From a virus: a stretch of 64,000 bases of DNA. The notes under the pieces are model-generated. The model made no database searches. It was given only the letters and a program-made list of their open reading frames with translations, and was not told the origin of the DNA. Each line of letters starts with the position of its first letter. The first letter of the stretch is position 1. A program made the position numbers and the translations under genes. The stretch lies in IMG/VR virus record IMGVR_UViG_3300009163_000019; one strand, 5' to 3'. Below, piece after piece: positions 1,008-52,142 of the stretch.

Positions 1008-1460
1008 CTATTCTAAGTCTTTTCTATAGAATCTTCCTTGTATATTATCATTATATGAATCTATACGAAGCACATCTAATTTCATTTGCCAGTAAACTTC
1101 CCAATAAGTAAGTTGTTTTTTAGAAAAACAGAGTTGTAAGATCTCTCTAGTAAATATTTCATTACCTAATTCTTTTCTTTCTAAATTTAGAGTCTTATTA
1201 CTTCCATAATAACTTAGCCAATCGCTTTCTTTTACCACTTTCTTTTTACGTGGGACGCGCCCAGGTTTGATCCAGGCCTCGATTTCCTTTTTGGTTAGTA
1301 TTTTATTATTATTGTTATATAAGACCTTTCTACCTATGTAGAATCGATTTGTAATAATGTTTGTGACCTTATATATAAAACCGACTGTATTCTCTGGAAA
1401 GTCTTCTACTTTGGTAAACTCTCTGTAGCTTCCTAAATTATCATGATGTAACCACTTCAT
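1008..1460 (-). CDS. GIY-YIG-like endonuclease
   Basis: GFIYKVTN...FYIGRK, later YYGS, F.REIL and YN.NI, as in T4-like phage GIY-YIG proteins. Confidence 0.75.
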   Translation of the reverse strand: MKWLHHDNLGSYREFTKVEDFPENTVGFIYKVTNIITNRFYIGRKVLYNNNNKILTKKEIEAWIKPGRVPRKKKVVKESDWLSYYGSNKTLNLERKELGNEIFTREILQLCFSKKQLTYWEVYWQMKLDVLRIDSYNDNIQGRFYRKDLE

Positions 1461-1469
1461 AAATCTTTA

Positions 1470-1772
1470 TTAACTATCCCATCTGATAACAAAAGTCATA
1501 TCTGTATTTTGTGGGATAGGATATGGCCTAGATAATTTTCCTACTATTAATAATTCATCTTGTGCATTATATAAGCCAACAGTAGTTGTATAAGGATGAA
1601 AATCAGATCCTGTTACTGCGTCTATATAAGATCCTGAGCTGCCTGCTTTATTTGCACTAGGATTTAAAGTATAGTTAAAATCATTTTCATTTATTTGGCA
1701 TCTTACTTCATTTTGATAAATGGTAGATTCAGCTACAAAAGATAGTGTATATGGTACTGGTGGGAATGGCAT
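1470..1772 (-). CDS. Baseplate/tail structural protein, C-terminal half of an apparently split gene
   Basis: Aligns by eye with the C-terminal ~95 aa of 14704..15735 (FNYTLNPS / YNYTTNPS; TTVGLYNAQDELLIVGKLSRP / TSVGMYNDNNELVAVAKLSKP). Confidence 0.7.
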   Translation of the reverse strand: MPFPPVPYTLSFVAESTIYQNEVRCQINENDFNYTLNPSANKAGSSGSYIDAVTGSDFHPYTTTVGLYNAQDELLIVGKLSRPYPIPQNTDMTFVIRWDS

Positions 1773-1779
1773 ACTGTAT

Positions 1780-1787
1780 ATAAATAT
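1780..1787 (-). promoter_or_regulatory. Class-L (late) promoter-like motif ATATTTAT, representative - strand copy
   Basis: Separated by 7 bp from the ATG of 1470..1772. Confidence 0.6.
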
Positions 1788-4267
1788 TAGTTTTCCCTTC
1801 TTTCTTCAGGAGTATAGTGGGCTATTCTATTATGATTTACAGGACTAGCTAATAAAACAGCAGGTTTTAAATTTTCTTTTTTAGTTTCTTGAAACATATA
1901 ACTCATCCAAGTCTGTTCATAAGGACGAGCCCATGTAGTATCTAAAAACATTTTTTGGTTTCCTTTCTTTCCTGCAATAGTTGGCCAGTTGCAATAGTAA
2001 ATATCCCCTGTAATATAACTAAGACCATCTACAACTTCTATTTTATCAAATTTAGTTTTAGGAGAATTTGGATCAAGACCTGTTGTTGGTAGTTCATTAT
2101 ATTCAGGCCAAAATTCATTTCTTATTTGTTGTGGAACATTATACCAAGATACTTGAATATTATTATCCATATAAACTTCTGTATACGATAATTTTAAAAA
2201 ATCAATATCAGAAGAATCTATAATTTTTAATACTTTATCATATAGATCTGAAATATATGTTCTGAAACCGTTTCTACAAATTCCATTAACAGGTTCGTGT
2301 ATTCCCATATCGTCTTCTAAAAAGATATAATAATCACTATCTGATTCTTGAAAGTGTTGTGCGGCTCTAAATCTACCTCCATTAATACCAGTATTTTCAT
2401 TTGTTATGATGTGTTCAAAATTATACTTTTTACAAATTTCTGCATTAGCTAATCTAGCTTCATCATTAGTAGAATTATCTATTAAAATATTTCTAGTATT
2501 TGTTATCCATTTAGGATGTTTAAGCCAGGTATTTATTGTATGTTCTACTTGATGAGGAAAATTAAATGTCAACATGTAAAGCGACATTTTTAATTTAGAA
2601 GGATCAGTATTTTTTTTAATAAACCGAATTTTTTCCTCTGGTACGGGTTCTAACTCTACAGTATCATTTAATAGAGCTTGTATAAATTTAACTATTAATC
2701 CATTATCATCTAATGCATATCTTCTATATGTTTGAGGTTCTAAGTAAGACATTACGGTAAACAGACTTTCTTCTGTACCCATATAGCCTTCACTAATAGA
2801 TCTATCTAATAAAGAATAGTACATCGCATTAGCCTCATTTATAACTTCTTTTCTACCTCCAAATAATCCGCCTCTACAGACATATTCTACTTTTTTAGCA
2901 GCATAACGATTAATTGCTTGAAAATCAAATCCATGAATTTCATCAGCAGCCTGATAAGGATAAGTTAAAAATAAAAATGAATCTAAATGTGGAATTATTT
3001 TATCTAATGCTCTATTATCTGAAAAAAACTTTTCATATACTGTATTAGTAATTCCTGCATCTAACCAAATAAAATATTTAGTATCAAATGGATTCCATAT
3101 AGTAACATCATTTAATAAAAACATTTTTGATTGTACTATAGGATTATACCATTCTAAAACAGCTTGAGGACTTTGCTTAAGCCAACCGCCTTCCCCGGTT
3201 TTATTATACCAATCTGGATTAGTTCTTATTGATTGGGTTTTATCCCAAAAAGGTGCATATATATTTTTTACATCTTCTAATTCATATATTTTTACAGTAG
3301 TATTTTTTTTGTCTCTAATTTCCCAAATTAAATGTTCATATTTACTTTCTATGTAAATAAACATATTAACAGGAATTTCTAAAAATTTTTTAAAATGCTC
3401 TATGTAATGATCAAAATCCCTAACAGGTCTTCCTATATTCCACAAACCCGTAACTACAGTTAAGTCTTTATTATTTACCTCTATTTTAGAACGATTTTCT
3501 GTTAAATATTTTAATAACTGCTGAGATTCTTCTGTAGATAGTGTTTTTGTTTTTTCTATAATATCTGATAATTTTGATTCTTTATTTTTATCGCTACCTT
3601 TAATTTCATCCCAAATATTTTTATCTACAGCATCAATATCTTGCCCAATTTCAATTACATAGCCATTATCAATTAATTTTTGTTTAGTTAATTCTTTTTC
3701 TTCATCTGTTAAATTTATATATTCTAAACGAATAAACTTAGGTTTATATTTATTAAAATCTAATTGTTTTAAAATATTCCAATCATATCCTTCAACATCA
3801 CATATTAAAATATCAAATTTTTCAATATTATGTTTATTCATTAAAGAGTTTAAAGTTAATGTAGGAACTTTTATATCTATTCCAAAATTCTTTTTTACAT
3901 CTATATCTCTTTGATAATCTGTTCCAAAACCGTTTTTTAGTGGATATAAAGCACTCATACCTTTATAACCCGGATGTAGATTTTCTTTTTCTATTGCTAT
4001 TTTTGGAATAGTTAACATTTCTACTTCGCCATCTATTTCTGTAATAGCACATTGTTCAAATGCATAATTTTCCCTATCTCTAAAGTTATATTTTAATTCA
4101 GTAAATATTTCTGGAATTGGTTCTACTAATAACGCAGGCCATCTATACATGTCTAGAAAACCTCTTGTATCATCAAAATTTATTCCATCCATGGCTCCTA
4201 TTTGAACTACAAATGTATCTTTATGATTTTTACCTATATGATGTAAAGTTTTTGATATTATATCCAT
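1787..4267 (-). CDS. Three-domain glycan enzyme: FkbM-type methyltransferase + HtrL/YibB-like glycosyltransferase + GT-A (GT2-like) domain
   Basis: N-terminal: VVQIGAMDG, LVEP, DVEGYD. Middle: TVVTGLWNIGR, WLDAG, GGLFGG, GTEE. C-terminal: ILIDNS, FLEDD. Confidence 0.75.
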   Translation of the reverse strand: MDIISKTLHHIGKNHKDTFVVQIGAMDGINFDDTRGFLDMYRWPALLVEPIPEIFTELKYNFRDRENYAFEQCAITEIDGEVEMLTIPKIAIEKENLHPGYKGMSALYPLKNGFGTDYQRDIDVKKNFGIDIKVPTLTLNSLMNKHNIEKFDILICDVEGYDWNILKQLDFNKYKPKFIRLEYINLTDEEKELTKQKLIDNGYVIEIGQDIDAVDKNIWDEIKGSDKNKESKLSDIIEKTKTLSTEESQQLLKYLTENRSKIEVNNKDLTVVTGLWNIGRPVRDFDHYIEHFKKFLEIPVNMFIYIESKYEHLIWEIRDKKNTTVKIYELEDVKNIYAPFWDKTQSIRTNPDWYNKTGEGGWLKQSPQAVLEWYNPIVQSKMFLLNDVTIWNPFDTKYFIWLDAGITNTVYEKFFSDNRALDKIIPHLDSFLFLTYPYQAADEIHGFDFQAINRYAAKKVEYVCRGGLFGGRKEVINEANAMYYSLLDRSISEGYMGTEESLFTVMSYLEPQTYRRYALDDNGLIVKFIQALLNDTVELEPVPEEKIRFIKKNTDPSKLKMSLYMLTFNFPHQVEHTINTWLKHPKWITNTRNILIDNSTNDEARLANAEICKKYNFEHIITNENTGINGGRFRAAQHFQESDSDYYIFLEDDMGIHEPVNGICRNGFRTYISDLYDKVLKIIDSSDIDFLKLSYTEVYMDNNIQVSWYNVPQQIRNEFWPEYNELPTTGLDPNSPKTKFDKIEVVDGLSYITGDIYYCNWPTIAGKKGNQKMFLDTTWARPYEQTWMSYMFQETKKENLKPAVLLASPVNHNRIAHYTPEERREN

Positions 4268-4268
4268 A

Positions 4269-5882
4269 TTATTTTGTTATGTAATAATTTTCTATTACTA
4301 GTCCGTCTAATTGTGTATTATTTAATATTTCAAATGCGTCTTTTATTGAAGAAAGTATAGGTTTACCATCTACATTAAATGATGTATTTAGTAGTACGCC
4401 TATACCGGTTTCTTCTTCAAATTTTGTTATTAAATTATATAACCATTCATTTTGTTCTTTTGTTACTGTTTGTACTCTAGCAGTACCATCAACATGTGTT
4501 ATTGATGGTAATTTATCTTTCCATTCCTCTTTTACTTTTGGACAAAAACTCATCCATCTAGATTCTTTATTCCATTCAAAATATTTATTTACATCTTCTA
4601 ATCTAACTACAGGAGCAAATGGTCTATACCACTCTCTATGTTTTACTTTTTCATTTAATATAGATTTCATTTCAGGAATAGTCGGATTACAAATAATACT
4701 TCTATTTCCTAAAGCTCTCGGTCCATGTTCTGATCTTCCTCTTGCAACACCGATTATTTTTCCATTAATAAGATCTTTAACTAAATCCTCTTCTTTTAGA
4801 TTATGAGAAGTAAAAAATATCTTATTATTTTGAATATAATCAGGTAATAAATCTAAGTCAAGTAAATTTGTACCAGAATAAGTACTATCAAAAGGTTTTT
4901 CAGGTTTTAAATTATCTAATATCATACCTAAACCTATTCCACAATCATTAGGATCAGGTCCAACAAATACTTCTTTATTAAATTCATTAACTAATCTGGT
5001 ATTTAATAAAATATTTAATCCACAACCTCCTGCTAAACATATTGGATATTCTTTATATTTTTCCATTTGAGGAATAGCAACTTCTAAAAAACAATCTTCA
5101 AAAGCTTTTTGAGATGTTGCAGCAATATCGTATGCTAATTGTCCTGTTAATCTATCAGTTATAGAAAATTCTACTCCTATAATATCACCTAAAACTTTTA
5201 TTTTATCAAAATAATTTCCTCCATTAGGATCACTCTTATAAAAATTTATAAAGTGTGGAAGCCACTCTTCATTTATTTTTCCATAAGATGATAGTCCCAT
5301 TATTTTTCCTGAATAAACTAAATTACCCATTCCTAAATCTTCAAATCTAATATCATTTAAGTAATGAGCAAATATCATATAAGGAAATCCTAAATCATAT
5401 CCGATATAATGAAGATTTAAAATTGGATTAATTACGCTTTGAATTTGCTCAGGAGATTTTCCTCTTTCACAAGTATAAACATTAAATTTTCCATCGTTTC
5501 CTCCACCATCAAAAGAAAATATTAGTGCTTTTTCAAAAGGAGATTGATAAAAAGATCCTGCGGCATGAGATAAATGATGTTTACATTCTATATAATTTTT
5601 TGCGGGTATAAATTTATGTAAATAATAAAGTTCATGTATAACTATATCAGTGTTTATATAATAGCAATTATCAAATTCTTCAATATTATATTTATTCATT
5701 ATCCATTTAGGAATATATTCGGCTAAAAATACTATGTCTAAAACTTTTGGACAATAATATTGAGCTAATCCAGAATTTTTATAATTTAAAAATCTTTCAA
5801 CTTCTAAAACTAATTCTATTTTGCCGTCTATTTCTAAAACATACGACGCATTATGAGAACCATAAAAAGATATATTTACCAT
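4269..5882 (-). CDS. O-carbamoyltransferase (NodU/CmcH/TobZ family)
   Basis: HHLSHAA, DGGG, GKIMGLSSYG, GGCGLN, EHGPRALGNRS, KHREWYRPFAP, HVDGTARVQTV, NTSFN. Confidence 0.93.
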   Translation of the reverse strand: MVNISFYGSHNASYVLEIDGKIELVLEVERFLNYKNSGLAQYYCPKVLDIVFLAEYIPKWIMNKYNIEEFDNCYYINTDIVIHELYYLHKFIPAKNYIECKHHLSHAAGSFYQSPFEKALIFSFDGGGNDGKFNVYTCERGKSPEQIQSVINPILNLHYIGYDLGFPYMIFAHYLNDIRFEDLGMGNLVYSGKIMGLSSYGKINEEWLPHFINFYKSDPNGGNYFDKIKVLGDIIGVEFSITDRLTGQLAYDIAATSQKAFEDCFLEVAIPQMEKYKEYPICLAGGCGLNILLNTRLVNEFNKEVFVGPDPNDCGIGLGMILDNLKPEKPFDSTYSGTNLLDLDLLPDYIQNNKIFFTSHNLKEEDLVKDLINGKIIGVARGRSEHGPRALGNRSIICNPTIPEMKSILNEKVKHREWYRPFAPVVRLEDVNKYFEWNKESRWMSFCPKVKEEWKDKLPSITHVDGTARVQTVTKEQNEWLYNLITKFEEETGIGVLLNTSFNVDGKPILSSIKDAFEILNNTQLDGLVIENYYITK

Positions 5883-6871
5883 TATTTTATGTGTAATAAT
5901 TTTAAACCGTGTGATAACCTATTTTCAGGACTACAATAATCTAAATAATATTGTCTTGCATTTTTAGCTATATAATTTAAAAACTCTGCGTCTTCTTTAA
6001 CTTCTAAAAATCTATCTATATAAGCTTTTATATAATTTTCTCCACCTAATCTATCTAAGCCATTATTATAAGGTAAATTATATTTAGCTCTATCTATTGC
6101 AATATAATGATAATTTGGTATTAATGGAGGATTTAATTGAGTCATATATTCAACTCTTAAAAATGGAACACCTATTGCCATATATTCCATTTCTCTATAT
6201 GAGTATTCCGCAGTAGTTCCAATTGCTAATCCTATTTTATGTTTTATTAATTCCTCAAAGTATGTTCCCATTCTTTTTGGCGTTAAGTCTTTATTCAAAT
6301 ATCCTAATTCTGATAATTTAACAGGATCAAATCTTTGAGTAGTATATAGCATGAATAGCTTATCTTCTAAATCAGAACTTGGAATATTTTTTCTTTTGGT
6401 ATATATATCCTCTAAATTAATTCTATCTGGATTTATTATATCATTTGTAGAATTATCTTGGACAGGATAAAAAACTGTTTGAGAAACTGTAAAATTATAA
6501 TCGGATAGATTCATATTGTCTTTACCTGTTTCTATAACTTTATTAAACCAATTATAAAATTGAGTTATTAATAATAAATCATTTTTATTATTTCTTTTAA
6601 CAAATACATCTTCCCAAATTTTAGTATAATGTTCACTATAACTTATTCCTTTTAATATATCATTTTCTTTATCATATATTAATAATTCACAGTCTGCCAT
6701 TTCATAATCAAATTCTTCAATATACATTGTAATACCTCCTGGACCTGGATAATTAGTTTTTCTTATGACTTCTGCACCATATTCTTTTTTGTAATATTCT
6801 ACAATTTCTTTAAATAATCCTTGCCAACTACTATATGCATAGCTAACATTTTCAAAATAATAAATTACCAT
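5882..6871 (-). CDS. Putative GT-B-type glycosyltransferase
   Basis: C-terminal 'SYREMEYMAIGVP...LIPNYHYI...IAKNARQYY' resembles phage GT-B C-terminal domains; it lies inside the glycan cluster. Confidence 0.55.
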   Translation of the reverse strand: MVIYYFENVSYAYSSWQGLFKEIVEYYKKEYGAEVIRKTNYPGPGGITMYIEEFDYEMADCELLIYDKENDILKGISYSEHYTKIWEDVFVKRNNKNDLLLITQFYNWFNKVIETGKDNMNLSDYNFTVSQTVFYPVQDNSTNDIINPDRINLEDIYTKRKNIPSSDLEDKLFMLYTTQRFDPVKLSELGYLNKDLTPKRMGTYFEELIKHKIGLAIGTTAEYSYREMEYMAIGVPFLRVEYMTQLNPPLIPNYHYIAIDRAKYNLPYNNGLDRLGGENYIKAYIDRFLEVKEDAEFLNYIAKNARQYYLDYCSPENRLSHGLKLLHIK

Positions 6872-6887
6872 AAATTATATATTAAAT

Positions 6888-8156
6888 TTAAATTGTGTGT
6901 TCTACTCTTTCTGCCCAACCAATTTCTTTACTATAACCCCAATAAACTACTCTAGTTGGTGTTTTATCAGTTAAAAAATACTCTTCATAGTGAATATTTT
7001 TTCCTTCCTCAATAAACTGCCTCAATTCTTCCCCGGTTATAAATTTATTATTTATTGAATTACCATTTGTATCATCAAATGCTACTAGTATATATTCATA
7101 ATCATTTCTTAAAAAATCTTTACGTTCTACTGTAACTAAGTAATAAAATGACTTATTAAAACTATATTCCCATAAATCATTATCATTAATAAGAGGATTA
7201 GGTGGATAATGATTATCTAAAGAGTATTGCTGAACAGACATTTTTTTAAAATTAAATCCAGCATATTTTTCATAATCTCTTAAAGATCTAACTGTTCCTA
7301 AATCATAGCCTGTTAAATCTATATTAGGATCTTCTTCTGTTCCTAATAAAACCCGTATTTTTTTTCTAGCTAATTCTTGTTTATTCCACCAATCTACTCC
7401 TAATTTTGCATCGTCATCCCACTTTAACATTCCTGATCTCTCTTCACGCATAGTTGAATGCCAAACAACTAATCTATGTGGATGAAATAAATCATATCCG
7501 TGAGTATATGATCTTACTGTTAAGTTTAATTCTTCACCTGAAAAATATATATCTGGATCGTGTCTTATTTCTTTTGCCCACTCTGATCTTGCAAAACAAA
7601 AGTGTCCTGATAAAAATCTACTCATCGGAGGTTCTGTCATATCTTGCCAGCCAGTAAGTAATCCAGGTCTTATGAATATTGTTCCATGTGGATAGAAACA
7701 TACAAATTGTTGTTGCCAGGGCTCCATTGTGCGGCCACCAGGATCATTAAAAGGTGTATACAATGGTAGATAGGCAGCTAATATAGGTTTATAACCACGA
7801 GCCTCTAAACCACTATGCATATCTATTAGAGTTTCATCCCAATCTTTAGCAAATCTATGATGTGAATCTAATTGACAAACATAGTCTTCATCTGTTAATA
7901 ATTTCTCATTTATAATAGATCTAGCCCAAGGAAGTCCTTGAGCCTCATTATATAAACATTCATAGATTTTAAAACGTTTATCATTTTTAAATTCTGATAA
8001 ATCGTCGAATCCATCTTCTGGATGATATTGTCTGCAGATACCAAAGTGTATTCTTTTTGGGTGTTTTGCATTTAATAAAGCATCTTTAATAGTAGGAATT
8101 AATTCAGGATCTCTGTAAGCTGGTAAATGTACCAGTATTGTTTTTTTATTATTCAT
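6888..8156 (-). CDS. GT60-like polypeptide/hydroxyproline GlcNAc transferase, paralog 2
   Basis: AYRDPEL..T, QLDSHHRF..DWD, FLSGHFCF, HDPDIYFSGEE...VRSYTHGYDLFHP. Confidence 0.82.
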   Translation of the reverse strand: MNNKKTILVHLPAYRDPELIPTIKDALLNAKHPKRIHFGICRQYHPEDGFDDLSEFKNDKRFKIYECLYNEAQGLPWARSIINEKLLTDEDYVCQLDSHHRFAKDWDETLIDMHSGLEARGYKPILAAYLPLYTPFNDPGGRTMEPWQQQFVCFYPHGTIFIRPGLLTGWQDMTEPPMSRFLSGHFCFARSEWAKEIRHDPDIYFSGEELNLTVRSYTHGYDLFHPHRLVVWHSTMREERSGMLKWDDDAKLGVDWWNKQELARKKIRVLLGTEEDPNIDLTGYDLGTVRSLRDYEKYAGFNFKKMSVQQYSLDNHYPPNPLINDNDLWEYSFNKSFYYLVTVERKDFLRNDYEYILVAFDDTNGNSINNKFITGEELRQFIEEGKNIHYEEYFLTDKTPTRVVYWGYSKEIGWAERVEHTI

Positions 8157-9405
8157 ATTCTATAACTTGTTCAATTCTTTCCATCCAACCTTTTGATTTT
8201 GTGTGAGGCCAAACTCTCCAAGAATGCGCTTTTCGATTATCTTCATACTCTCTCCAAATATGAATAAATTGATCATTACTGTCTTGATTAATTAATCCAC
8301 GTATTTCATTTTCATCACAATCTCTTCTATATAAATCATTTCCATCTTCGTCTAAAAATGCAACTGCAAATTGATCATAATCAGATTCTATAAGTGATCC
8401 CTTATAAATATCAATACAATGTTTTATCTTACTCGCTAACCCAGACTCATAATCCCCTTTAATTGGAGGAAAATCATTATTAAGAGTTTCTTTGTGTATC
8501 TGTCTTGTAGAAAATTTTAATCCGGCATATCTTTCATAAGCATCTAAAGTTTCAATATAACCAAAATAATTCGGAGCTAAAGCTCTTCTAGTGCAAGAAG
8601 AACAACCAGGATCCATTCCCATTAATTTTCTATATCTTGCATAAGATGCATCATCTCTTTCTTTCCAATCATTAGAATCATCCCAATGTTTTTTCTTTCC
8701 TTCTCTTGTATATTCATGCCATATAACAGGCCTATGTGGAGAAAATAAATTATATCCAAAAGTAAAAGCTCTAGCAGCTAAAGAACTTTCTTCTCCATGA
8801 AAATATAATTCAGGATCATAAGGAACTTCTATTGGAAATGAACCTAATGTAAAAATAAAATGAGCAGATATAAATCTTGCAGGAAAAGGTTCTTTATGAT
8901 CTTGCCAATTTGGAATATGGTGAGGAGCTAAAAATATAGCTCCCGCAGGCATGAATCTATCTATATTTAAACCCCACACTTCATGAACTCTTGCATTCGG
9001 ATCATTATTAGGAAAATATCCAGGTACATAAGCAGATAATAAAGGTTTTTTATATCCTTTACATTGTAAATAGTGTATATAATCTTTTAAAGTTATATCC
9101 CAGTCTTGTAAAAATCTATGATGTGAATCTAATTGTAAATAATATTCCTGATCTGTATAATGTTTTTGAATTTCTGCACGCATCCAACAAACACCTTTAG
9201 CTTCTTTATATGGAATATCTAAAATAATAAATCTAGAATCATTTTTATATTCATCTAGATTATCCCAAGTATCTTCTTCTGAATGTTGCCAACCAATACA
9301 AATAGTAAAATTTTCTGGATTAACACAATTAGTTAATAAATCTTTTATAGTAGGAAGTAATTCTGGATCTCTATAAGCTGCTATCGAAACAAAAATTCTT
9401 GACAT
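8149..9405 (-). CDS. GT60-like polypeptide/hydroxyproline GlcNAc transferase, paralog 1 (start likely ATG 9405, MSRIFVSIAAYRD)
   Basis: IFVSIAAYRDPEL, LQLDSHHRF..WD, FISAHFIF, VPYDPELYFHGEE..LAARAFTFG, WHEY.R. Confidence 0.85.
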   Translation of the reverse strand: MSRIFVSIAAYRDPELLPTIKDLLTNCVNPENFTICIGWQHSEEDTWDNLDEYKNDSRFIILDIPYKEAKGVCWMRAEIQKHYTDQEYYLQLDSHHRFLQDWDITLKDYIHYLQCKGYKKPLLSAYVPGYFPNNDPNARVHEVWGLNIDRFMPAGAIFLAPHHIPNWQDHKEPFPARFISAHFIFTLGSFPIEVPYDPELYFHGEESSLAARAFTFGYNLFSPHRPVIWHEYTREGKKKHWDDSNDWKERDDASYARYRKLMGMDPGCSSCTRRALAPNYFGYIETLDAYERYAGLKFSTRQIHKETLNNDFPPIKGDYESGLASKIKHCIDIYKGSLIESDYDQFAVAFLDEDGNDLYRRDCDENEIRGLINQDSNDQFIHIWREYEDNRKAHSWRVWPHTKSKGWMERIEQVIEYE

Positions 9406-9410
9406 AACGT

Positions 9411-9447
9411 AAATATACAAAATTTATTTGATATAAAAAAATTTATT
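9411..9447 (-). promoter_or_regulatory. Class-E (early/middle-type) promoter-like element
   Basis: The minus strand reads AATAAATTTTTTTATATCAAATAAATTTTGTATATTT, nearly identical to the elements at 31238-31273 and 41625-41660. Confidence 0.65.
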
Positions 9448-12400
9448 TTAACATGGACCTGCGGCTATATTTGCTGTAAATCCTCTAGTAGGTGTTGCAG
9501 AATTTACAGCAGCTGTACACGTACCTCCTGCTGTAGGACAAGTACTGTTTGCAGATATACCACAATTATAAGGACTTCTATCTGCATTATTCACTAATTG
9601 AACTAATGCTGAATCACCTGCATTTAATATGAATGAAGCTCTAAATCCGCAAGTAGAAACAGCAAATGCGGCTCCTACAGGAGTATAATTAAATCCACCA
9701 TCTGTTGAATATTCAAATTGAACAAAAGTTGCATTATCACTAGTTTTACCATATAAATTAACAGTAAATGGACCAGACGTAGACGGAGTTACACTAGGAG
9801 TTCTAGTTGGCGTTGGTGATGGTGAAGGACAAGCCGCTATACTTTGAATCAATCCACTACCTCCTGTTACTGTACCATAATTCGTTCCATTAGAATAGAA
9901 TCCGTTATTTACTGTATTAGATCCTATTGAATCCATAGCATTTGTTTTATATAGAATCATACCAGCTTGAAATGCTGAGGTATACGAATAATATGTTGTT
10001 AAAGTTTCTGTTGCTGTACATGCAGTTAATCCACTTGATGCATTATAGTATAACGCATAAGAATATACTACTCTACTAGGACTAGGAGTATTACTAGGTG
10101 TTATACTAGGAGTTATACTAGGTGTTACTGTTCTAGTAGGAGTTATACTAGGAGTTATACTAGGTGTTTTACTAGGTGTTACTGTTCTAGTAGGAGTTAT
10201 ACTAGGAGTTATACTAGGTGTTACTGTTCTAGTAGGAGTTATACTAGGAGTTACACTAGGTGTTGTTGATCTAGTAGTACTTACACTAGGAGTCGGTACC
10301 GCTGTACAATCTTGAACATTAGTTATATTTCCTGCTCCATCCATTTCAACAGCGTATGTGACACCACTTCTAGTAATATAGTGCCATGTAGTTCCTAAAT
10401 ATTTATTAGCCGGATTTAAAGTATCAGTAGTATATATAATGCCTCCTATTGCAGGAACATTATAAGATGAATTCATCCATACAGGAAGGGACGCTCCAGC
10501 ATTAGCGCAAGCTAATGTAGATGTTGCGTATGCTGTATTATTAATTAAATATGCAACAGGTGCCGCAGTAACACTAGGAGTTACGCTAGGAGTTATACTA
10601 GGTGTAATACTAGGAGTTCTACTAGGTGTTACGCTAGGAGTGCCGCTAACGCTAATTGACGGAGTAGGTGCAGGAGTACACGCTATATTTACTGTATATG
10701 TATCAGTTTTTGGATCAGCAGGATTATATGTTCCTGTTTCAACTAATAAGTAATATGTTATACTATTATTATAAGTAAAATCTAAATATCCAGTAGGTGA
10801 TCCGAATGTATTAGGCGTTGGAAGGGTTGGACAATCCCAATCAGGCGCGGAATAACAAAAATCAGATCCTACCCAACTTGAAGAAACGGCAGTTGCTATG
10901 CCATTTTCATAGACTGTAAATCTATTAGGCCTTTCATAAGCTTGATAAAAAAGTGATATTGCACTTCCATTAGGAGTAGATGAAAAATCTAAACAATAAA
11001 ATTCCTGATGGTAATCATTACCACTATATCCTCCTGATATAATATCTCCACAATCATTTGGACATCCACCTGGACCATATGCCGATCTTGTAGGACTTAC
11101 AGAAGGTGTATTAGTTGCTGTGGGAGTGGGGGGTGGTGTACAAATAACTCTTATATAATAAGCATCTGTTATTCCAATATCCTCACAAATATCAACTATC
11201 ACATAATATGTTCTTGAACTATTGTATGTAAATGTTGTATCTACAGGGTTTATGTCAATAGGAGTACAAGGGGAACTAGGTGCTGATGATGGTGATCCTA
11301 ACCATCCAGTTGTAAATATCGGTGATGGATTTACGCTATCATACAATGTAAATCTGTCAGGCCTATCTCTTCCATCAAATTGTATATATATAGAAGAACC
11401 ATTTGCCGTAGATGTTAAATCAAGATTTACTTGTTGTTGTGATGCATTATTAGGACTATAAGAACCTATATAACTACCTCCACAACTTAATACTGGATTT
11501 GGTGTTGTTGAAGGTGTTATAGTAATACTAGGTGTTGTACTAACTGTTATACTAGGTGTTATGCTAGGAGTTCTACTAGGTGTAATAGTAATACTAGGAG
11601 TAATACTAGGAGTAATACTCGGTGTTATGCTAGGTGTTACGCTAGGAGTTCTACTAGGCGTTGCGGTTACACTAGGTGTTGCAGTTACTGTTGGTGTAAC
11701 ACTTATACTAGGTGTTGCTGTTATACTAGGTGTTGCTGTTACTGTTGGAGTAATAGTTATACTAGGTGTTATACTAACAGTAATACTAGGTGTTACGCTA
11801 GGTGTTATGCTAGGAGTTACACTAGGTGTTATTGATATGCTAGGTGTTACGCTAGGTGTTATGCTAGGTGATACACTAGGAGTTACACTAATACTGGTAG
11901 TAATGCTAGGAGTTATACTAGGAGTTACACTAGGAGTTATACTAATACTGGTAGTGATGCTAGGTGTTATGCTAGGTGTTACACTAGGTGTTATTGATGT
12001 AGTAGTAGTAATGCTAGGAGTTATACTAGGTGTAATACTTGGCGTAATGCTAGGTGTTATACTAGGGGTAACTGTTGCTGTTACACTAGTAGTAATACTA
12101 GGAGTTATACTAGGTGTTACGCTAACAGATATACTAGGAGTTATACTTGGAGTTACACTAGTAGTAATACTAGGAGTTACGCTAGGTGTTATGCTAGGAG
12201 TTACTGATATACTAGGTGTTACACTAGGAGTCATTGTTATAGTTACACCTGGTGTTGATGTTGGACTAGCTGTCAAAGTTATAGTAGGAGTAATACTTAT
12301 GCTAGGTGTTGCTGTTACTGTTGGCGTAATAGTTATACTAGGCGTTGCTGTTACACTAGGTGTTGCAGTTATACTAGGTGTAATACTAATACTAGGCGTT

Positions 12401-13413
12401 GCTGTTACACTAGGCGTTGCTGTTACACTAGGTGTAATACTTATGCTAGGTGTAGATGTTACAGTTGGTGTAATAGTTATACTAGGCGTTGCTGTTAAAC
12501 TAGGTGTAATACTTATACTAGGTGTAGATGTTACAGTTGGCGTAATAGATATACTAGGCGTTGCTGTTACACTAGGCGTTGCTGTTACACTAGGTGTAAT
12601 ACTTATGCTAGGTGTTACACTAGGAGTCATTGTTATAGTTACACCTGGTGTTGATGTTGGGCTAGCTGTCAAAGTTATAGTAGGTGTAATACTTATGCTA
12701 GGTGTAATAGTTACTGTCGGGGTAATAGTTACACTAGGTGTTGCTGTTACAGTTGGTGTAATAGTTATACTAGGCGTTGCTGTTACACTAGGTGTAGGTG
12801 TTACCGTTGGTGTAATAGTTATACTAGGAGTCGCAGTCATACTAGGTGTTGTTGTTACTGTTGGACTAATACTTACACTAGGTGTTGCGGTTACTGTTGG
12901 AGTAATACTTATACTAGGTGTTGCAGATACTGTTGGACTAATACTTACACTAGGTGTAGATGTTACCGTTGGTGTAATAGTTATACTAGGTGTTGCTGTT
13001 ACAGTTGGTGTTATGCTAGGAGTTACACTAGGTGTTATTGATATAGTAGTAGTAATACTAGGAGTTATACTAGGTGTAATACTAGGAGTTACGGTAACAG
13101 ATATACTAGGAGTTATACTAACAGTTATACTAGGTGTAATACTCGGTGTTATAGAAACAGTAACAGATGGAGTAGGACTCGGAGCAACTATATATCTAAT
13201 TACTTGATTATTACCTGAACAAAATTCTTGATTTATTAATTTTACATAAACACTATTATCATTTATAGTTACTGTATAACCTGCTAATAAAGTATCAATT
13301 GAAACATTTGCCTGGATTAATACATCTGGACCACTATAACTTGTACCGTAATACAAATTAAACGGCCCTACCGAATCTCCATATGTACTTCCTAATGTTA
13401 TTAATACTTGCAT
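9448..13413 (-). CDS. Mucin-like Pro/Thr/Ser-rich virion-associated protein with Cys-bounded globular domains
   Basis: About 560 aa of (T-P-S/T-I/V)n-type repeats, three shorter PTS linkers and duplicated Cys-flanked domains. It has no signal peptide and lies downstream of the baseplate genes. Confidence 0.8.
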   Translation of the reverse strand: MQVLITLGSTYGDSVGPFNLYYGTSYSGPDVLIQANVSIDTLLAGYTVTINDNSVYVKLINQEFCSGNNQVIRYIVAPSPTPSVTVSITPSITPSITVSITPSISVTVTPSITPSITPSITTTISITPSVTPSITPTVTATPSITITPTVTSTPSVSISPTVSATPSISITPTVTATPSVSISPTVTTTPSMTATPSITITPTVTPTPSVTATPSITITPTVTATPSVTITPTVTITPSISITPTITLTASPTSTPGVTITMTPSVTPSISITPSVTATPSVTATPSISITPTVTSTPSISITPSLTATPSITITPTVTSTPSISITPSVTATPSVTATPSISITPSITATPSVTATPSITITPTVTATPSISITPTITLTASPTSTPGVTITMTPSVTPSISVTPSITPSVTPSITTSVTPSITPSISVSVTPSITPSITTSVTATVTPSITPSITPSITPSITPSITTTTSITPSVTPSITPSITTSISITPSVTPSITPSITTSISVTPSVSPSITPSVTPSISITPSVTPSITPSVTPSITVSITPSITITPTVTATPSITATPSISVTPTVTATPSVTATPSRTPSVTPSITPSITPSITPSITITPSRTPSITPSITVSTTPSITITPSTTPNPVLSCGGSYIGSYSPNNASQQQVNLDLTSTANGSSIYIQFDGRDRPDRFTLYDSVNPSPIFTTGWLGSPSSAPSSPCTPIDINPVDTTFTYNSSRTYYVIVDICEDIGITDAYYIRVICTPPPTPTATNTPSVSPTRSAYGPGGCPNDCGDIISGGYSGNDYHQEFYCLDFSSTPNGSAISLFYQAYERPNRFTVYENGIATAVSSSWVGSDFCYSAPDWDCPTLPTPNTFGSPTGYLDFTYNNSITYYLLVETGTYNPADPKTDTYTVNIACTPAPTPSISVSGTPSVTPSRTPSITPSITPSVTPSVTAAPVAYLINNTAYATSTLACANAGASLPVWMNSSYNVPAIGGIIYTTDTLNPANKYLGTTWHYITRSGVTYAVEMDGAGNITNVQDCTAVPTPSVSTTRSTTPSVTPSITPTRTVTPSITPSITPTRTVTPSKTPSITPSITPTRTVTPSITPSITPSNTPSPSRVVYSYALYYNASSGLTACTATETLTTYYSYTSAFQAGMILYKTNAMDSIGSNTVNNGFYSNGTNYGTVTGGSGLIQSIAACPSPSPTPTRTPSVTPSTSGPFTVNLYGKTSDNATFVQFEYSTDGGFNYTPVGAAFAVSTCGFRASFILNAGDSALVQLVNNADRSPYNCGISANSTCPTAGGTCTAAVNSATPTRGFTANIAAGPC
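11500..13185 (-). repeat. Degenerate 12/18-bp tandem repeats encoding the TPSI/TPSVTA mucin region
   Basis: The + strand shows repeated actaggtgttat / actaggcgttgctgttac units. Confidence 0.95.
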
Positions 13414-13434
13414 TTAATTTAAATACTTTTTTTA

Positions 13435-14697
13435 TTATAGTATATTGCTACATTGATTATATCCTGTTATTCTATATACTTTTCCATTTACTGTAATATC
13501 TTGTGGACTAGATGTTATATTAGTTCCATTTAATGATAATACAGAAGGTTTCCAACTATTTGCCGTGTAAATTCCAGATCCATTATCGCATATAGGATTA
13601 CTATCATAAAATTGAGGATATGCAGATCCTGAAGGTATAAATAATTCAGTACTTAATGAATTATAGAATACATCAGTTCTAAATATACAGGCTCCTAAAT
13701 TAGTTCCATTACAACTTGTACCTGTGTATTTTATTATTTGTCCTGTTATAGTTAAATCGTCAGCTATAGATCCAGAAGTTATTTCTCCTGTAACCTTGAC
13801 ATCACCAGATCCATTATTAAATCCATAAACTAATATTTTAGCTTGTATAATAGAATTAGAAGTTGATGGTGTTACTGTTACAGTAGGAGTTTGTGTTACT
13901 GTTGGTGTTATAGTTATACTTGGCGTTATACTAGGGGTTATACTAACAGTTGTACTTGGTGTTTTACTAACTGTCTTACTAGGTGTCTTACTAGGAGTTG
14001 TAGTTTTAGTTGGTGTTATACTAGGAGTAATACTCGGTGTTTTACTTGGTGTTACAGTAGGTGTTTGAGTAAGTCCTGGTGTTATAGAAATTGTTACACT
14101 TGGACTAGGAGACGCAGCTATTATTGTAGATAGTGTAAAATCAAAACTAGGATCTGCTACTAAACATACATAATCTTCATTTGTAAATGTAATAATTCCT
14201 TGTGCATATAAAACATTTCCTACATGAACATTATTATTAAATGTGTCTACTATATTACCATTACCATCATCTATAATATTATAACTAGTTCCATCAGTAG
14301 AAGCAATATTAACTGTTCTTCTACTCATTTGTTCTCCAAACTGTCTTGATGGAATTGCAAAAAATCCTATATTACTTCCAGTAGCAGAAGGAAAATATCG
14401 ATTATCATCATCTAAACTACCCGATGCTCCTGTAGATTGTATAGAAGGATCCCAATAAGAAGCGGATCCTATAATAGATCCAGTTATATAATTTTGATAA
14501 TAAAGTTGCTTTATTACAGCATACTTATTTCTCTTAATAAAGGGTAACCCAGGAGAAGGTGAAACTATATTCGTACCCCTATTAGTAGTTATTCCGTAGT
14601 CCAGTAAAGACTGACTCGCATAGGTAGCAGAATATTTTACTTTTATAGGAGCCGAAGATATATCCGATTTTTTTATGGTATTCTTCGATCTGCTCAT
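13435..14697 (-). CDS. Baseplate/tail structural protein N-terminal half fused to a PTS repeat and a Cys-containing domain
   Basis: The N-terminal ~175 aa align with the N-terminal part of 14704..15735. A TPS repeat spans ~14110-13860. Confidence 0.7.
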   Translation of the reverse strand: MSRSKNTIKKSDISSAPIKVKYSATYASQSLLDYGITTNRGTNIVSPSPGLPFIKRNKYAVIKQLYYQNYITGSIIGSASYWDPSIQSTGASGSLDDDNRYFPSATGSNIGFFAIPSRQFGEQMSRRTVNIASTDGTSYNIIDDGNGNIVDTFNNNVHVGNVLYAQGIITFTNEDYVCLVADPSFDFTLSTIIAASPSPSVTISITPGLTQTPTVTPSKTPSITPSITPTKTTTPSKTPSKTVSKTPSTTVSITPSITPSITITPTVTQTPTVTVTPSTSNSIIQAKILVYGFNNGSGDVKVTGEITSGSIADDLTITGQIIKYTGTSCNGTNLGACIFRTDVFYNSLSTELFIPSGSAYPQFYDSNPICDNGSGIYTANSWKPSVLSLNGTNITSSPQDITVNGKVYRITGYNQCSNIL

Positions 14698-31277: not shown

Positions 31278-31313
31278 TAAATATTTTTTTATATGGTTTT
31301 TTTATCTTATATT
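31278..31313 (+). promoter_or_regulatory. Degenerate class-E promoter-like element upstream of primase
   Basis: TAAATATTTTTTTATATGGTTTTTTTATCTTATATT has the same T7-ATAT...TATATT spacing. Confidence 0.5.
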
Positions 31314-31319
31314 AGTATA

Positions 31320-32249
31320 ATGGAGAATGAACTTTTAGTTTTAGGTTTATTAGAATCTGTCCTTGGTAAAGGAAAAGGATCAAAAACAACCATGGACTAT
31401 GCTTTTTATTGCCCAGTTTGTAAACATAAGAATCCTAAACTTATTGTTAATATCAAATCTGGACAGTATAATTGCTGGACATGCCATCCACCTACTAAAG
31501 GTAAAACACCAGTATCACTTTTTAAAAAAATAGATGCTCCAAATGACAGGCTATTAGAAATGAAGAGCTATTTTAAAGGAGATAATACCAAGATTGATAC
31601 CACAAAATCAGATAAAGTAACCTTACCAGAAGAATTTATATCTTTATCTAATCCAGATAAAACATTAGAGACTAGACATGCATTATCTTACATAAAGAAA
31701 AGAGGAATTACAGAAAATGATATTAAAAAATATGGAATAGGGTATTGTAAGACCGGAAGATATAGAAACAGAATAATAGTTCCATCTTATGATAAATCAG
31801 GAGTCTTAAATTATTTTATTGCTAGATCATTTGAATCTGATCCTAGTAGAAAATATGATGCTCCTACATGTAATAAGACAGAAATAATTGGATTAGAGTA
31901 TTTTATTAATTGGTCCGTTCCTGTTATTCTTTGTGAAGGAATATTTGATGCAATATCTATTAAAAGAAATGCTATTCCTTTATTTGGTAAGACGATTACT
32001 AAGTCACTAATGATGAAATTAGTAGAATCTGAAGTAAAAACTATATATTTAGCATTAGACAAAGATGCTTTAAAAGAAGCTCTTGAATATTCTCAAAATC
32101 TTTTAAATCTAGGTAAAGAAGTTTATCTAATTGAACTAGAAGGGAAAGATCCTTCTGATCTTGGTTTTAATAATATGACTAAGTTACTACATAAAGCGAA
32201 GCCACTATCATTTAGTGATCTACTTCTTAAAAAAATCCAATTATTATGA
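31320..32249 (+). CDS. DNA primase (Zn finger + TOPRIM); start likely ATG 31320
   Basis: CPVC.H...YNCWTC zinc finger; RIIVP; LCEGIFDA; LALDKDA; KDP. Confidence 0.9.
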   Translation: MENELLVLGLLESVLGKGKGSKTTMDYAFYCPVCKHKNPKLIVNIKSGQYNCWTCHPPTKGKTPVSLFKKIDAPNDRLLEMKSYFKGDNTKIDTTKSDKVTLPEEFISLSNPDKTLETRHALSYIKKRGITENDIKKYGIGYCKTGRYRNRIIVPSYDKSGVLNYFIARSFESDPSRKYDAPTCNKTEIIGLEYFINWSVPVILCEGIFDAISIKRNAIPLFGKTITKSLMMKLVESEVKTIYLALDKDALKEALEYSQNLLNLGKEVYLIELEGKDPSDLGFNNMTKLLHKAKPLSFSDLLLKKIQLL

Positions 32250-52129: not shown

Positions 52130-52142
52130 AATAAATAAAACA

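Follow-up and report, generated by a model that had tools for sequence, protein, structure and literature searches.

A candidate cytoplasmic mucin-type protein O-glycosylation module in the tail-fibre locus of a Flavobacterium-type myovirus

Repeat proteins in the tail locus

The window, that is, the whole 64,000-nucleotide (64-kb) stretch of viral DNA analysed (IMG/VR record IMGVR_UViG_3300009163_000019), carries in a myovirus tail module a minus-strand cassette of genes for two proteins with proline/threonine/serine-rich (PTS) tracts, a pair of GT60 glycosyltransferase paralogs and their putative tailoring enzymes (Table 1). This order of ORFs had been given for positions 1787-14697 in the initial annotation, and all of them were recovered at the same coordinates. 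The intergenic gaps across the cassette range from -8 to 42 nt, and the cassette lies at most 42 nt from the tail genes, with which it is co-directional. In the nearest isolate, tail fibre and tail spike genes are annotated in the same slot, after the two conserved tail genes.

Table 1. Features of the cassette and its borders, with positions in the window
Feature	Coordinates	Strand	Basis
Two conserved tail genes, 343 aa and 219 aa	14704..16406	-	mark the slot as tail-fibre/spike
P0007, 420 aa, candidate glycosylation substrate	13435..14697	-	translation, N-domain orthologs
P0006, 1321 aa, main candidate substrate, probable tail fibre/adhesin	9448..13413	-	repeat content, domain homology
GT60a (P0005), predicted cytoplasmic GT-A glycosyltransferase of the polypeptide HexNAc-transferase type, probable initiating enzyme	8149..9405	-	PF11397
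GT60b (P0004), divergent paralog	6888..8156	-	PF11397, E 6e-50
P0003, 329 aa, possible GT-B-like glycosyltransferase (lead)	5882..6871	-	Atlas structure, TM 0.65
NodU/CmcH-type O-carbamoyltransferase	4269..5882	-	PF16861, PF02543, phrog_1601
FkbM-HtrL_YibB-GT2-like three-module enzyme	1787..4267	-	Pfam; GT2-like weak
100-aa ORF, downstream edge of the inserted block	1470..1772	-	homology to C-terminal part of ancestral tail gene
SegE-like GIY-YIG homing endonuclease, cassette boundary	1008..1460	-	PF19835, E 8e-26

The larger repeat protein, P0006, has a "beads on a string" architecture, in which a 74-aa N-domain is followed by the PTS tract and then by five small globular domains set on PTS linkers. 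Its continuous tract, previously estimated at about 560 aa of T-P-S/T-I/V repeats, was measured at 570 aa (residues 75-644), with the linkers between the globular domains being shorter; altogether 777 of the 1321 residues belong to PTS tracts, including 382 Ser/Thr and 89 exact TPS[IV] units, and Tandem Repeats Finder gave repeat periods of 12, 36, 54 and 216 nt. Large PTS proteins of close relatives begin with a conserved version of the N-domain, and homologs of the domains D1/D2 and D5 are found in PTS-free tail proteins of GT60-negative relatives. D2 was modelled as a beta-sandwich (pLDDT 90) that weakly matches binding modules, and P0006 is probably a tail fibre or adhesin.

The second PTS-bearing protein, P0007, which had also been recognised earlier, consists of a tail-protein N-domain (residues 1-195) joined to a C-terminal domain by about 100 aa of PTS linker. 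Judged by synteny and domain homology, both proteins would be incorporated in the virion. Their PTS tracts are internal and 100-570 aa long, and none was found in the major head protein (52071-53798) or in the other ORFs of the 64-kb window. Thus, a dense Pro/Thr/Ser tandem-repeat acceptor candidate, one of the marks of a mucin-type system, is present in P0006 and P0007.

The borders of the cassette point to an insertion into a tail gene. In gp105 of Flavobacterium phage immuto, the central part corresponds to P0007 and the C-terminal region to the 100-aa ORF. The two parts of the ancestral tail gene are close together in GT60-negative relatives, within about 600 nt. Here its N-part sits in P0007, and the 100-aa ORF, homologous to its C-part, is taken as the downstream edge of the inserted block. 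The SegE-like endonuclease adjoins the same locus in 14 loci and may drive the exchange of this variable region.

The GT60 pair and the partner enzymes

The assignment of the two paralogs to GT60, for which the initial annotation proposed a profile search, was confirmed by PF11397 matches of 208 bits (E 3e-61) for GT60a and 171 bits for GT60b, far above the cut-off of 21 bits, and the AYRD, DSH, F-x-S-x-HF and GEE motifs reported before are readable in both. Residues D98, H100 and H235 are invariant across 47 homologs, and the DxH motif with the downstream histidine is the predicted metal site. The AF2 model (pLDDT 93) has a Rossmann-like alpha/beta core of the GT-A type, whose nearest folds in the structure comparison are the mucin-type ppGalNAc-transferases; no GT60 chain was found in the PDB sequence searches or among the fold matches listed. 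GT60a carries a beta-rich C-terminal domain of about 90 aa. Judged by the length of the database copy, 418 aa, its gene most likely starts at the ATG at 9405 rather than at the TTG at 9420. The characterised GT60 enzymes transfer alpha-GlcNAc onto Thr of Thr/Pro-rich mucins and require Mn2+ (PMC3769586). Retaining GlcNAc transfer from UDP-GlcNAc onto hydroxyls of Thr/Ser or Hyp in polypeptides is an activity displayed by the characterised eukaryotic members. GT60a is the probable initiating enzyme.

GT60b forms its own long-branch clade (SH-aLRT 100) and is always found downstream of a GT60a-type gene, with the tandem order GT60a-GT60b being kept in about half of 57 loci. In a large protein set, 4,215 homologs reach E 1e-10 and carry PF11397. 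Among the 50,697 isolate records GT60 occurs in 4. GT60 homologs were also observed on two giant-virus MAG contigs (L047, L048).

Among the partner enzymes, the O-carbamoyltransferase call proved sound: both the Carbam_trans_C (PF16861, 3e-66) and the Carbam_trans_N (PF02543, 4e-23) profiles were found, corresponding to the YrdC-like C-domain and the Kae1-like N-domain of the NodU/CmcH type, and the match to phrog_1601 (2e-125) covers residues 7-536. The methyltransferase/HtrL/GT-A fusion described earlier held for its FkbM methyltransferase (residues 22-192) and HtrL_YibB (268-514) modules, and its GT2-like module (562-654) remained weak, scoring 19.6 bits against the Pfam cut-off of 23.3. 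Of all the GT60 partners this three-module protein is the most conserved, its homologs occurring in 39 of 58 loci, and HtrL is present in all four complete GT60-positive genomes versus none of the three GT60-negative ones. The GT-B-like label of P0003 found no match in Pfam or PHROG, but its Atlas structure gave a lead, a TM of 0.65 to Glyco_trans_1_2/GT90 clusters, by which the protein is possibly a GT-B-like glycosyltransferase; its homologs occur in 10 GT60 loci. The cassettes of relatives also include the nucleotide-sugar genes DegT, 4,6-dehydratase and NeuB.

The earlier remark that the substrate has no signal peptide was borne out, and neither a compatible signal peptide nor a transmembrane helix was found in any cassette protein or substrate (maximal Kyte-Doolittle 19-mer 1.42). 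No undecaprenyl-linked-type domain was detected by the Pfam search among the cassette enzymes.

Co-occurrence of GT60 with PTS repeats in relatives

The expectation that GT60 genes and PTS repeats occur together in related phages was upheld for adjacent and unlinked genes, across several genomic settings and also in cultured phages whose hosts belong to another phylum. In all seven of the closest loci, PTS ORFs adjoin GT60. Among the contigs of at least 20 kb fetched through a conserved tail gene, PTS repeats were found in 5/5 GT60-positive versus 3/31 GT60-negative ones (Fisher p 1.5e-4). The most direct comparison is provided by the orthologs of the P0007 N-domain in 33 related loci, where the PTS insert is present in all 9 GT60-positive genomes and in only 2 of the 24 others. 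The two also occur together at a distance: in a complete 183-kb genome the PTS genes of the tail locus are 58 kb or more away from the GT60 pair, and the five GT60-positive genomes without adjacent PTS each have 2-48 pattern matches elsewhere, versus 0, 1 and 0 matches in the three complete GT60-negative genomes.

GT60 is encoded in 19 of 47 contigs picked by PTS-coding DNA alone, which speaks for the association. On the other side, PTS tracts exist without GT60: of the contigs chosen by the PTS pattern that are at least 90% complete, 3/7 are without GT60, and one relative (L095) has a 936-aa PTS ORF with GT60 absent from its 26-kb fragment. In one group of relatives (group B) the cassette is placed beside the DNA polymerase, among replication genes and not tail genes. 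The putative initiating-transferase family co-varies with its candidate acceptor, another mark of a mucin-type system, on few independent contrasts: the tail-gene tree provides two well-supported pairs (four on the best tree), too few for a sign test.

The cultured relatives extend the pattern. The GT60-carbamoyltransferase pair together with PTS proteins is found in the Stenotrophomonas phages CM1 and RAS14, in XacN1 and in Xoo-sp13, with the adjacency of the two enzyme genes being common to XacN1, where the homolog ORF334 (36% identical) is followed by the carbamoyltransferase, and Xoo-sp13. The numbers of PTS pattern matches are 50 in XacN1 and 47 in Xoo-sp13, both GT60-positive, versus 0 in the GT60-negative immuto, and XacN1 encodes near its tail sheath five proteins with 220-460 PTS residues each. 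The XacN1 virions have been shown to contain at least two PAS-stained glycoproteins, for which phage glycosyltransferases were proposed as the source in 2018; neither GT60 nor the PTS substrates were recognised and the glycoproteins were not identified in that work (PMC5852040). The literature searches found no description of a phage cassette uniting GT60 with mucin-like proteins, in agreement with the initial annotation.

Proposed function, alternatives and known systems

The gene content and the co-occurrence support the interpretation given in the initial annotation, which was refuted by none of the three of its four refuting conditions that were checked by computation, and it is considered probable that the locus is a phage-encoded cytoplasmic module for mucin-type protein O-glycosylation, situated within the tail-fibre region of a Flavobacterium-type myovirus. 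According to this scheme, the tail genes and the cassette would be expressed together late in infection, and GT60a, aided or followed by GT60b, would use a UDP-sugar donor to place a HexNAc, probably GlcNAc, on the Ser/Thr residues of the T-P-S-[I/V] tracts in P0006 and P0007, with other phage proteins as possible further acceptors. More sugars might then come from the HtrL/GT2 module and the GT-B-like protein, to be modified by the carbamoyl- and methyltransferase. The product would be long, stiff, protease-resistant glycosylated spacers of a bottle-brush kind, presumably borne on the virion, by which the small beta-sandwich binding domains are held off the baseplate. A hydroxyproline-linked route like that of Skp1 is unlikely, because a prolyl hydroxylase is absent in three of the four complete relatives.

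Alternatively, the cassette may target an envelope glycan or glycoprotein of the host, such as LPS, capsule or, in a Bacteroidota host, O-glycosylated surface proteins. This might, for example, block superinfection or keep the progeny from being trapped on debris, and the PTS tracts would be flexible linkers without glycans, connected with the cassette by no more than common ancestry or ecology. HtrL_YibB is named after a gene of the E. coli LPS-core region, some homologs are labelled "glycosyltransferase involved in cell wall biosynthesis" by JGI, the DegT, 4,6-dehydratase and NeuB genes are typical of surface-polysaccharide loci, and the replication-gene setting in group B and the existence of PTS tracts without GT60 point the same way. 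However, this explanation, which is judged unlikely, accounts neither for the PTS inserts in orthologous tail proteins exactly where GT60 occurs nor for the unlinked, genome-level co-occurrence in several lineages. Besides, none of the enzymes has a transmembrane segment or an undecaprenyl-linked-type domain, polypeptides are the acceptors of all characterised GT60 and GT27 enzymes, and in XacN1 the glycoproteins are in the virions themselves.

It is quite unlikely as well that GT60 glycosylates mainly phage proteins other than the PTS tracts, such as capsid or tail-tube subunits, or that the PTS proteins bind the glycan made by the cassette. The summary in PMC12619734 places the glycans of mycobacteriophages on the C-termini of capsid and tail-tube proteins, the PAS-positive bands of XacN1 may be proteins without PTS tracts, and the domains of P0006 show a weak likeness to beta-sandwiches that bind carbohydrates or ligands; but the nearest characterised enzymes prefer Thr/Pro-rich mucin repeats, and it is the PTS tract itself that tracks GT60. 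Hypermodification of phage DNA bases against restriction by the glycosyl-, carbamoyl- and methyltransferases, a target that the initial annotation had named as contrary to its reading, is very improbable: diverse phage glycosyltransferases decorate hydroxymethylated bases, according to Pyle et al. 2024, and the cassette is near the DNA polymerase in some relatives, but the ThyA-like hydroxymethylase family PF00303 is absent in three of four complete GT60-positive genomes and present in two of three GT60-negative ones, the nearest isolate, which is free of GT60, modifies its DNA fully with 7-deazaguanine, GT60 has its fold in common with polypeptide transferases, and the PTS correlation would be left without a reason.

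Beyond this locus, it appears somewhat favoured that a large unrecognised phage clade of GT60, with thousands of metagenomic homologs, performs cytoplasmic mucin-type O-glycosylation, co-evolving with PTS virion proteins in phages that infect Bacteroidota, Xanthomonadales and other hosts, and building bottle-brush fibres, and that it represents the prokaryotic-virus side of the GT60/GT27 lineage once thought a eukaryotic speciality. Few cases of phage virion glycosylation are known, and it affects immune recognition, stability and host binding. If the mucin-type reading is true, O-glycosylation initiated by GT60/ppGalNAc-T-like enzymes would be common in environmental phages, as the 4,215 homologs suggest; the Pro/Thr/Ser "linkers" of many phage tail and decoration proteins would be glycan carriers and not plain spacers; and many "hypothetical" phage genes, those of the HtrL_YibB family among them, would gain a function. 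Soluble enzymes for producing mucin-like glycoproteins in the bacterial cytoplasm would also become available, and the system would bear on the origin of the eukaryotic mucin-initiating transferases. The GT60-PTS system is open to direct testing in the cultured phages XacN1, Xoo-sp13, CM1 and RAS14.

Among the known viral systems, the giant viruses, such as chlorovirus PBCV-1 and mimivirus, have glycosylated fibrils or capsids, with an N-linked attachment in PBCV-1. Their glycosylation is virus-encoded, host-independent and cytoplasmic, with clusters that mix glycosyltransferases and sugar-tailoring enzymes like the present cassette; unlike it, they have eukaryotic hosts, other linkages and glycosyltransferase families, and no PTS-repeat acceptor logic. 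In mycobacteriophages (Freeman et al. 2023, as summarised in PMC12619734), phage glycosyltransferases modify structural proteins in the host cytoplasm, as proposed here; the capsid and tail-tube subunits bear the glycans on short C-terminal extensions, and the enzymes belong to other glycosyltransferase families. The co-direction of glycosyltransferase and structural genes was found here too, whereas short C-terminal capsid or tail-tube acceptors were not; the candidate acceptors are tracts of 100-570 residues in fibre-like tail proteins, with a GT60 initiator and carbamoyl- and methyl-tailoring enzymes. XacN1 belongs to another lineage (384 kb) with a host of another phylum and encodes only one GT60. 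In animals and apicomplexans, mucin-type O-glycosylation is initiated by the ppGalNAc-transferases (GT27), which form a separate CAZy family with only 11-15% identity to the phage GT60 and work in the secretory pathway, in contrast to the predicted cytoplasmic phage enzymes. The eukaryotic GT60 enzymes, Dictyostelium Gnt2/GntB, Trypanosoma cruzi TcOGNT-2 and Skp1 Gnt1, have PF11397 and the DxH-type metal site in common with the phage pair; the polypeptide alpha-GlcNAc-transferases among them use Thr/Pro-rich mucin-like acceptors, which the phage candidate acceptors resemble, and the Hyp-GlcNAc-transferase Gnt1 is soluble and cytoplasmic, as the phage enzymes are predicted to be. The phage enzymes differ from their eukaryotic counterparts in having no Golgi membrane anchor, in the extra beta-rich C-terminal domain of about 90 aa, and in forming an old a/b paralog pair within a tail module.

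Gene layout and the cassette enzymes

The window comes, as judged by its head and tail gene matches, from a tailed phage of the myovirus type, with a G+C content of about 30%; a megablast of 10 kb of it against 50,697 phage records gave no match, and a PADLOC search found no known defence-system family. A co-directional string of minus-strand genes, with intergenic gaps of -8 to 42 nt, covers the stretch between about 30 kb and 1 kb and leads from the baseplate genes to those of the Pro/Thr/Ser (PTS) proteins P0006 and P0007 and of the cassette, where all the ORFs listed in the initial annotation proved to be real. In the divergent replication block, a DnaG-type primase and a PD-(D/E)XK nuclease adjoin an ORF for a zeta-toxin-like kinase domain protein.

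Features of the window (positions in nt)
Feature	Position	Strand	Remarks
SegE-like ORF	1008-1460	-	PF19835, E 8e-26
100-aa ORF	1470-1772	-	
FkbM methyltransferase, HtrL_YibB and GT2 fusion	1787-4267	-	Pfam; GT2 sub-threshold
NodU/CmcH carbamoyltransferase, two-domain	4269-5882	-	Pfam
P0003	5882-6871	-	no family match; Atlas model like Glyco_trans_1_2/GT90-type clusters, TM 0.65
P0004 (GT60b)	6888-8156	-	
P0005 (GT60a)	8149-9405	-	
P0006	9448-13413	-	1321 aa; 74-aa N-domain, PTS tract, five small globular domains
Antisense open frame	11561-13207	+	548 aa
P0007	13435-14697	-	about 100-aa PTS stretch, globular domain on either side
gp6-like baseplate wedge	22122-23978	-	
DnaG-type primase	31293-32249		
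PD-(D/E)XK nuclease	32246-33040		
Zeta-toxin-like kinase domain protein	33055-33840	+	PF06414, E 1.7e-12
Large terminase	42989-44584		
Portal	44591-46495		
Major head protein	52071-53798		

The Pfam profile for CAZy GT60, PF11397, is matched by both paralogs, P0005 and P0004 (E 3e-61 and 6e-50), which likewise match a PHROG labelled glycosyltransferase, and by profile and motif they are GT60 members, as had been claimed initially. The AlphaFold2 model of P0005, made with a 47-sequence alignment (pLDDT 93, pTM 0.88), contains a GT-A catalytic domain at about residues 1-330 and a beta-rich domain at about 331-419; the residues D98, H100 and H235 are invariant in the alignment, which fits the DxH...H metal site of this enzyme class. 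The GT60 enzymes characterised from T. cruzi and Dictyostelium are Mn2+-dependent and transfer alpha-GlcNAc onto Thr of mucin peptides rich in Thr and Pro (PMC3769586). When the PDB was searched by sequence, neither P0005 nor the 47-sequence profile retrieved a GT60 structure, the matches being chance ones to fatty-acid-binding proteins. The family is a large one, with 4,215 homologs at a cut-off of E 1e-10, almost all of them called hypothetical. In the tree of the phage enzymes the P0004-type copies are united in a single clade on a long branch (support 100), and the P0005-type copies cluster with single-copy genes; the tree thus shows the tandem pair to be old and suggests a division of labour between the two types. 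Four GT60-like ORFs, one of them within a 933-aa frame, lie at about 23.8-44.5 kb of a 98-kb viral contig (L237, G065), which suggests that in some phages the family has expanded and undergone fusion. The homologs of 39-40% identity in two contigs binned as giant-virus MAGs (GVMAG; L047, L048) share a clade with the single-copy group-F phage enzymes.

As to the other enzymes, the initial O-carbamoyltransferase assignment is borne out by a two-domain NodU/CmcH match; the predicted methyltransferase/HtrL/GT-A fusion stood in its FkbM and HtrL_YibB parts, but its GT2 domain is sub-threshold; and the "GT-B-like" label of P0003 has a structural resemblance in its favour but no family match, and is a lead only. 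Homologs of the HtrL/GT2 protein are the most faithful companion of GT60 (39 of 58 loci). The cassettes of relatives (L017:11233-14163, L025:14398-19949) contain, in addition, transferases of GT25-like and PLOD-GT-like type, which in eukaryotes have relatives that glycosylate the hydroxylysine of collagen, and also a DegT aminotransferase, a 4,6-dehydratase, NeuB and a TPP enzyme; phages probably vary widely in the glycans that they build on the GT60 primer. Since no hydrophobic stretch fit for a signal peptide or a TM helix was found in any of the cassette or candidate-substrate proteins, the enzymes and candidate substrates would meet in the cytoplasm, the setting proposed initially from the lack of a signal peptide.

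The PTS proteins and their place in the tail locus

Residues 75-644 of P0006 form a single unbroken PTS tract, and further PTS linkers separate its globular domains, to a total of 777 PTS residues, including 382 Ser/Thr and 89 exact TPS[I/V] units; the DNA of the tract is made of imperfect tandem arrays with periods from 12 to 216 nt. The open frame antisense to these repeats is almost certainly no gene but a by-product of the repetitive ACN-CCN-WSN coding, and a local GC-skew reversal at 10-14 kb is caused by the same repeats. The Pfam search of P0006, P0007, P0003 and most tail ORFs gave no family match, and matches to phrog_15511 were set aside as homology evidence, being apparently driven by the PTS tract itself.

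In the domain comparisons, the N-domain of P0006 was confined to the large PTS proteins of close relatives, where it is N-terminal; D1/D2 match one domain of an 854-aa non-PTS tail protein (L065), and D5 the C-terminal end of a non-PTS P0007 ortholog of 381 aa (L058). These comparisons support a structural role of P0006, and the recurrence of its domains in non-PTS proteins shows that the same distal modules are connected directly in some phages and through PTS linkers in others. D2, whose family counts 125 representative clusters, has a predicted beta-sandwich fold (pLDDT 90). Its similarity to collagen-binding/PPC, enterotoxin receptor-binding and CBM6 modules is weak, with no match better than E 3e-3, and gives a hint of a binding module or adhesin; an Atlas features search with D2 gave unannotated viral clusters only.

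In the nearest isolate, a Flavobacterium phage, annotated tail fibre and tail spike genes lie between the conserved tail genes and a "NAD synthetase" gene, so that P0006, P0007 and the cassette, in the equivalent interval, occupy the host-recognition slot. The N-domain of P0007 and the 100-aa ORF, 11.7 kb downstream, match parts of one gene, gp105 of the GT60-negative Flavobacterium phage immuto, and their counterparts in GT60-negative relatives are at most about 600 nt apart; an ancestral tail gene thus seems to have been interrupted by insertion of the PTS/glycosylation block. The 100-aa ORF bears a further resemblance, to the C-terminal end of the preceding tail protein of 343 aa. The ORF at 1008-1460 matches phrog_447 "NAD synthetase", and a homolog is so annotated in the Flavobacterium phage record, but this label was rejected in favour of a SegE-like GIY-YIG homing endonuclease. 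In 14 loci such an ORF borders the variable tail-fibre/glycosylation region, and the endonuclease might drive cassette exchange.

Co-occurrence of GT60 and PTS tracts

A search of IMG/VR with P0005 gave 57 GT60 loci. PTS ORFs lie immediately upstream of GT60 in each of the seven closest (71-81% identity), and the more distant ones fall into at least five gene contexts, several also with adjacent PTS ORFs. As a control blind to GT60, 80 relatives were gathered via a conserved tail gene and scored for the coding pattern of T-P-[ST]-[IV]-T-P-[ST]. Of the 36 contigs that reach 20 kb, it was present in 5/5 GT60-positive versus 3/31 GT60-negative ones (Fisher p 1.5e-4), the latter three being two fragments 13-16% complete and one complete genome with a single match. 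In all nine GT60-positive genomes a PTS tract of 100 aa or more comes after the P0007-type N-domain, and in 22 of 24 GT60-negative ones no tract does.

The linkage of GT60 and PTS genes is not required, as the complete 183-kb genome L121 has four PTS ORFs at the tail locus and its GT60 pair at the opposite contig end, a distance of no less than 58 kb even allowing for circular permutation of the genome. Five GT60 genomes without adjacent PTS ORFs all carry the pattern elsewhere (42, 2, 11, 48 and 23 matches; 0 for the reversed-pattern control), and three complete GT60-negative genomes gave 0, 1 and 0 matches. In the GT60 genomes without adjacent PTS ORFs, the PTS proteins are, among others, a gp15-like/ConA-lectin protein that matches a baseplate-wedge PHROG, one with SprB repeats and one with a weak head-decoration match. 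The 1841-aa PTS-linker protein of a GT60-positive phage (L159:3192-8714, minus strand) bears SprB repeats and a weak match to the T9SS C-terminal sorting domain, both of which are known from the gliding adhesins of Bacteroidota and would fit a host in that phylum.

In the reverse test, viral contigs of at least 30 kb were picked solely by the PTS coding pattern (at least 47 contigs, a sample rather than a census). Among the matches listed, GT60 was found in 19 of 47 contigs, 16 of 27 of at least 60 kb and 4 of 7 at least 90% complete, its carriers including jumbo phages of 217-321 kb, and part of the contigs had PTS tracts without GT60. In the isolate collection, 4 of 50,697 records contain GT60. 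Among cultured phages, XacN1 and Xoo-sp13, two of these four GT60 isolates, have 50 and 47 pattern matches, and the GT60-negative Flavobacterium phage has 0. The XacN1 homolog, ORF334 (36% identity), is directly followed by a carbamoyltransferase, as in the window and likewise in Xoo-sp13. At least two bands of XacN1 virions were stained by periodic acid-Schiff (PAS), and the phage glycosyltransferases ORF328 and ORF334 were suggested by the authors as makers of the stained glycoproteins (PMC5852040). The obvious candidates for the PAS-positive bands would be ORF350, 369, 370, 372 and 384, each with 220-460 residues of T-P-T/S-[IV]-type tract, which surround the tail sheath and completion genes. 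The giant ORF325, beside the baseplate wedge, was set aside as a weak candidate substrate with merely two short PT linkers.

Relatives share traits by descent. On a tree built from the neighbouring tail protein, GT60 presence has to change at least four times, at least two changes being forced by well-supported branches, and PTS and GT60 are concordant in every independent pair (2/2 of the well-supported ones), but two to four such pairs are too few for significance; further lineages add independent GT60-PTS cases outside any single rooted tree. The co-occurrence proposed initially as a check was found in adjacent and unlinked forms and in cultured phages, with few independent contrasts.

Probable target and known systems

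The GT60 enzymes probably O-glycosylate the PTS tracts of phage structural proteins, an interpretation already offered in the initial annotation, whose observation is confirmed and which every available genomic test supported; which sugar is added, what the accessory enzymes do and what the product is for are matters of inference. A rather improbable alternative is that the cassette acts on a host envelope glycan or glycoprotein, the PTS proteins being unglycosylated linkers, as HtrL is named after an LPS-region gene, the cassettes of relatives hold DegT, 4,6-dehydratase, NeuB and GT25/PLOD-GT-like genes, and in one group the cassette adjoins the DNA polymerase; however, such a target gives no reason for the PTS tracts coming and going with GT60. 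A Skp1-like hydroxyproline linkage is unlikely and was discarded, since just one of four complete GT60-positive genomes encodes a P4H-like 2OG oxygenase (PF13640). Glycosylation of phage DNA bases is hardly credible, as it requires a hydroxymethylated base, whereas the ThyA-like gene is absent in three of four complete GT60-positive genomes and present in two of three GT60-negative ones, and the nearest isolate has its DNA fully modified with 7-deazaguanine, yet no GT60.

In the published literature searched, no paper tied GT60/PF11397 to phages or to PTS-repeat phage proteins, in agreement with the initial statement that no phage GT60-plus-mucin cassette had been described. Phage virion glycosylation is itself already known, from the PAS-positive bands of XacN1 and from mycobacteriophages, with glycans on the capsid and tail-tube C-termini (Freeman et al. 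2023, as summarised in PMC12619734). The proposed system would resemble mucin-type O-glycosylation in its dense PTS acceptor, its polypeptide HexNAc-transferase-like initiator and its extension and tailoring enzymes, but, unlike the eukaryotic version, it would be phage-encoded and operate in the bacterial cytoplasm.
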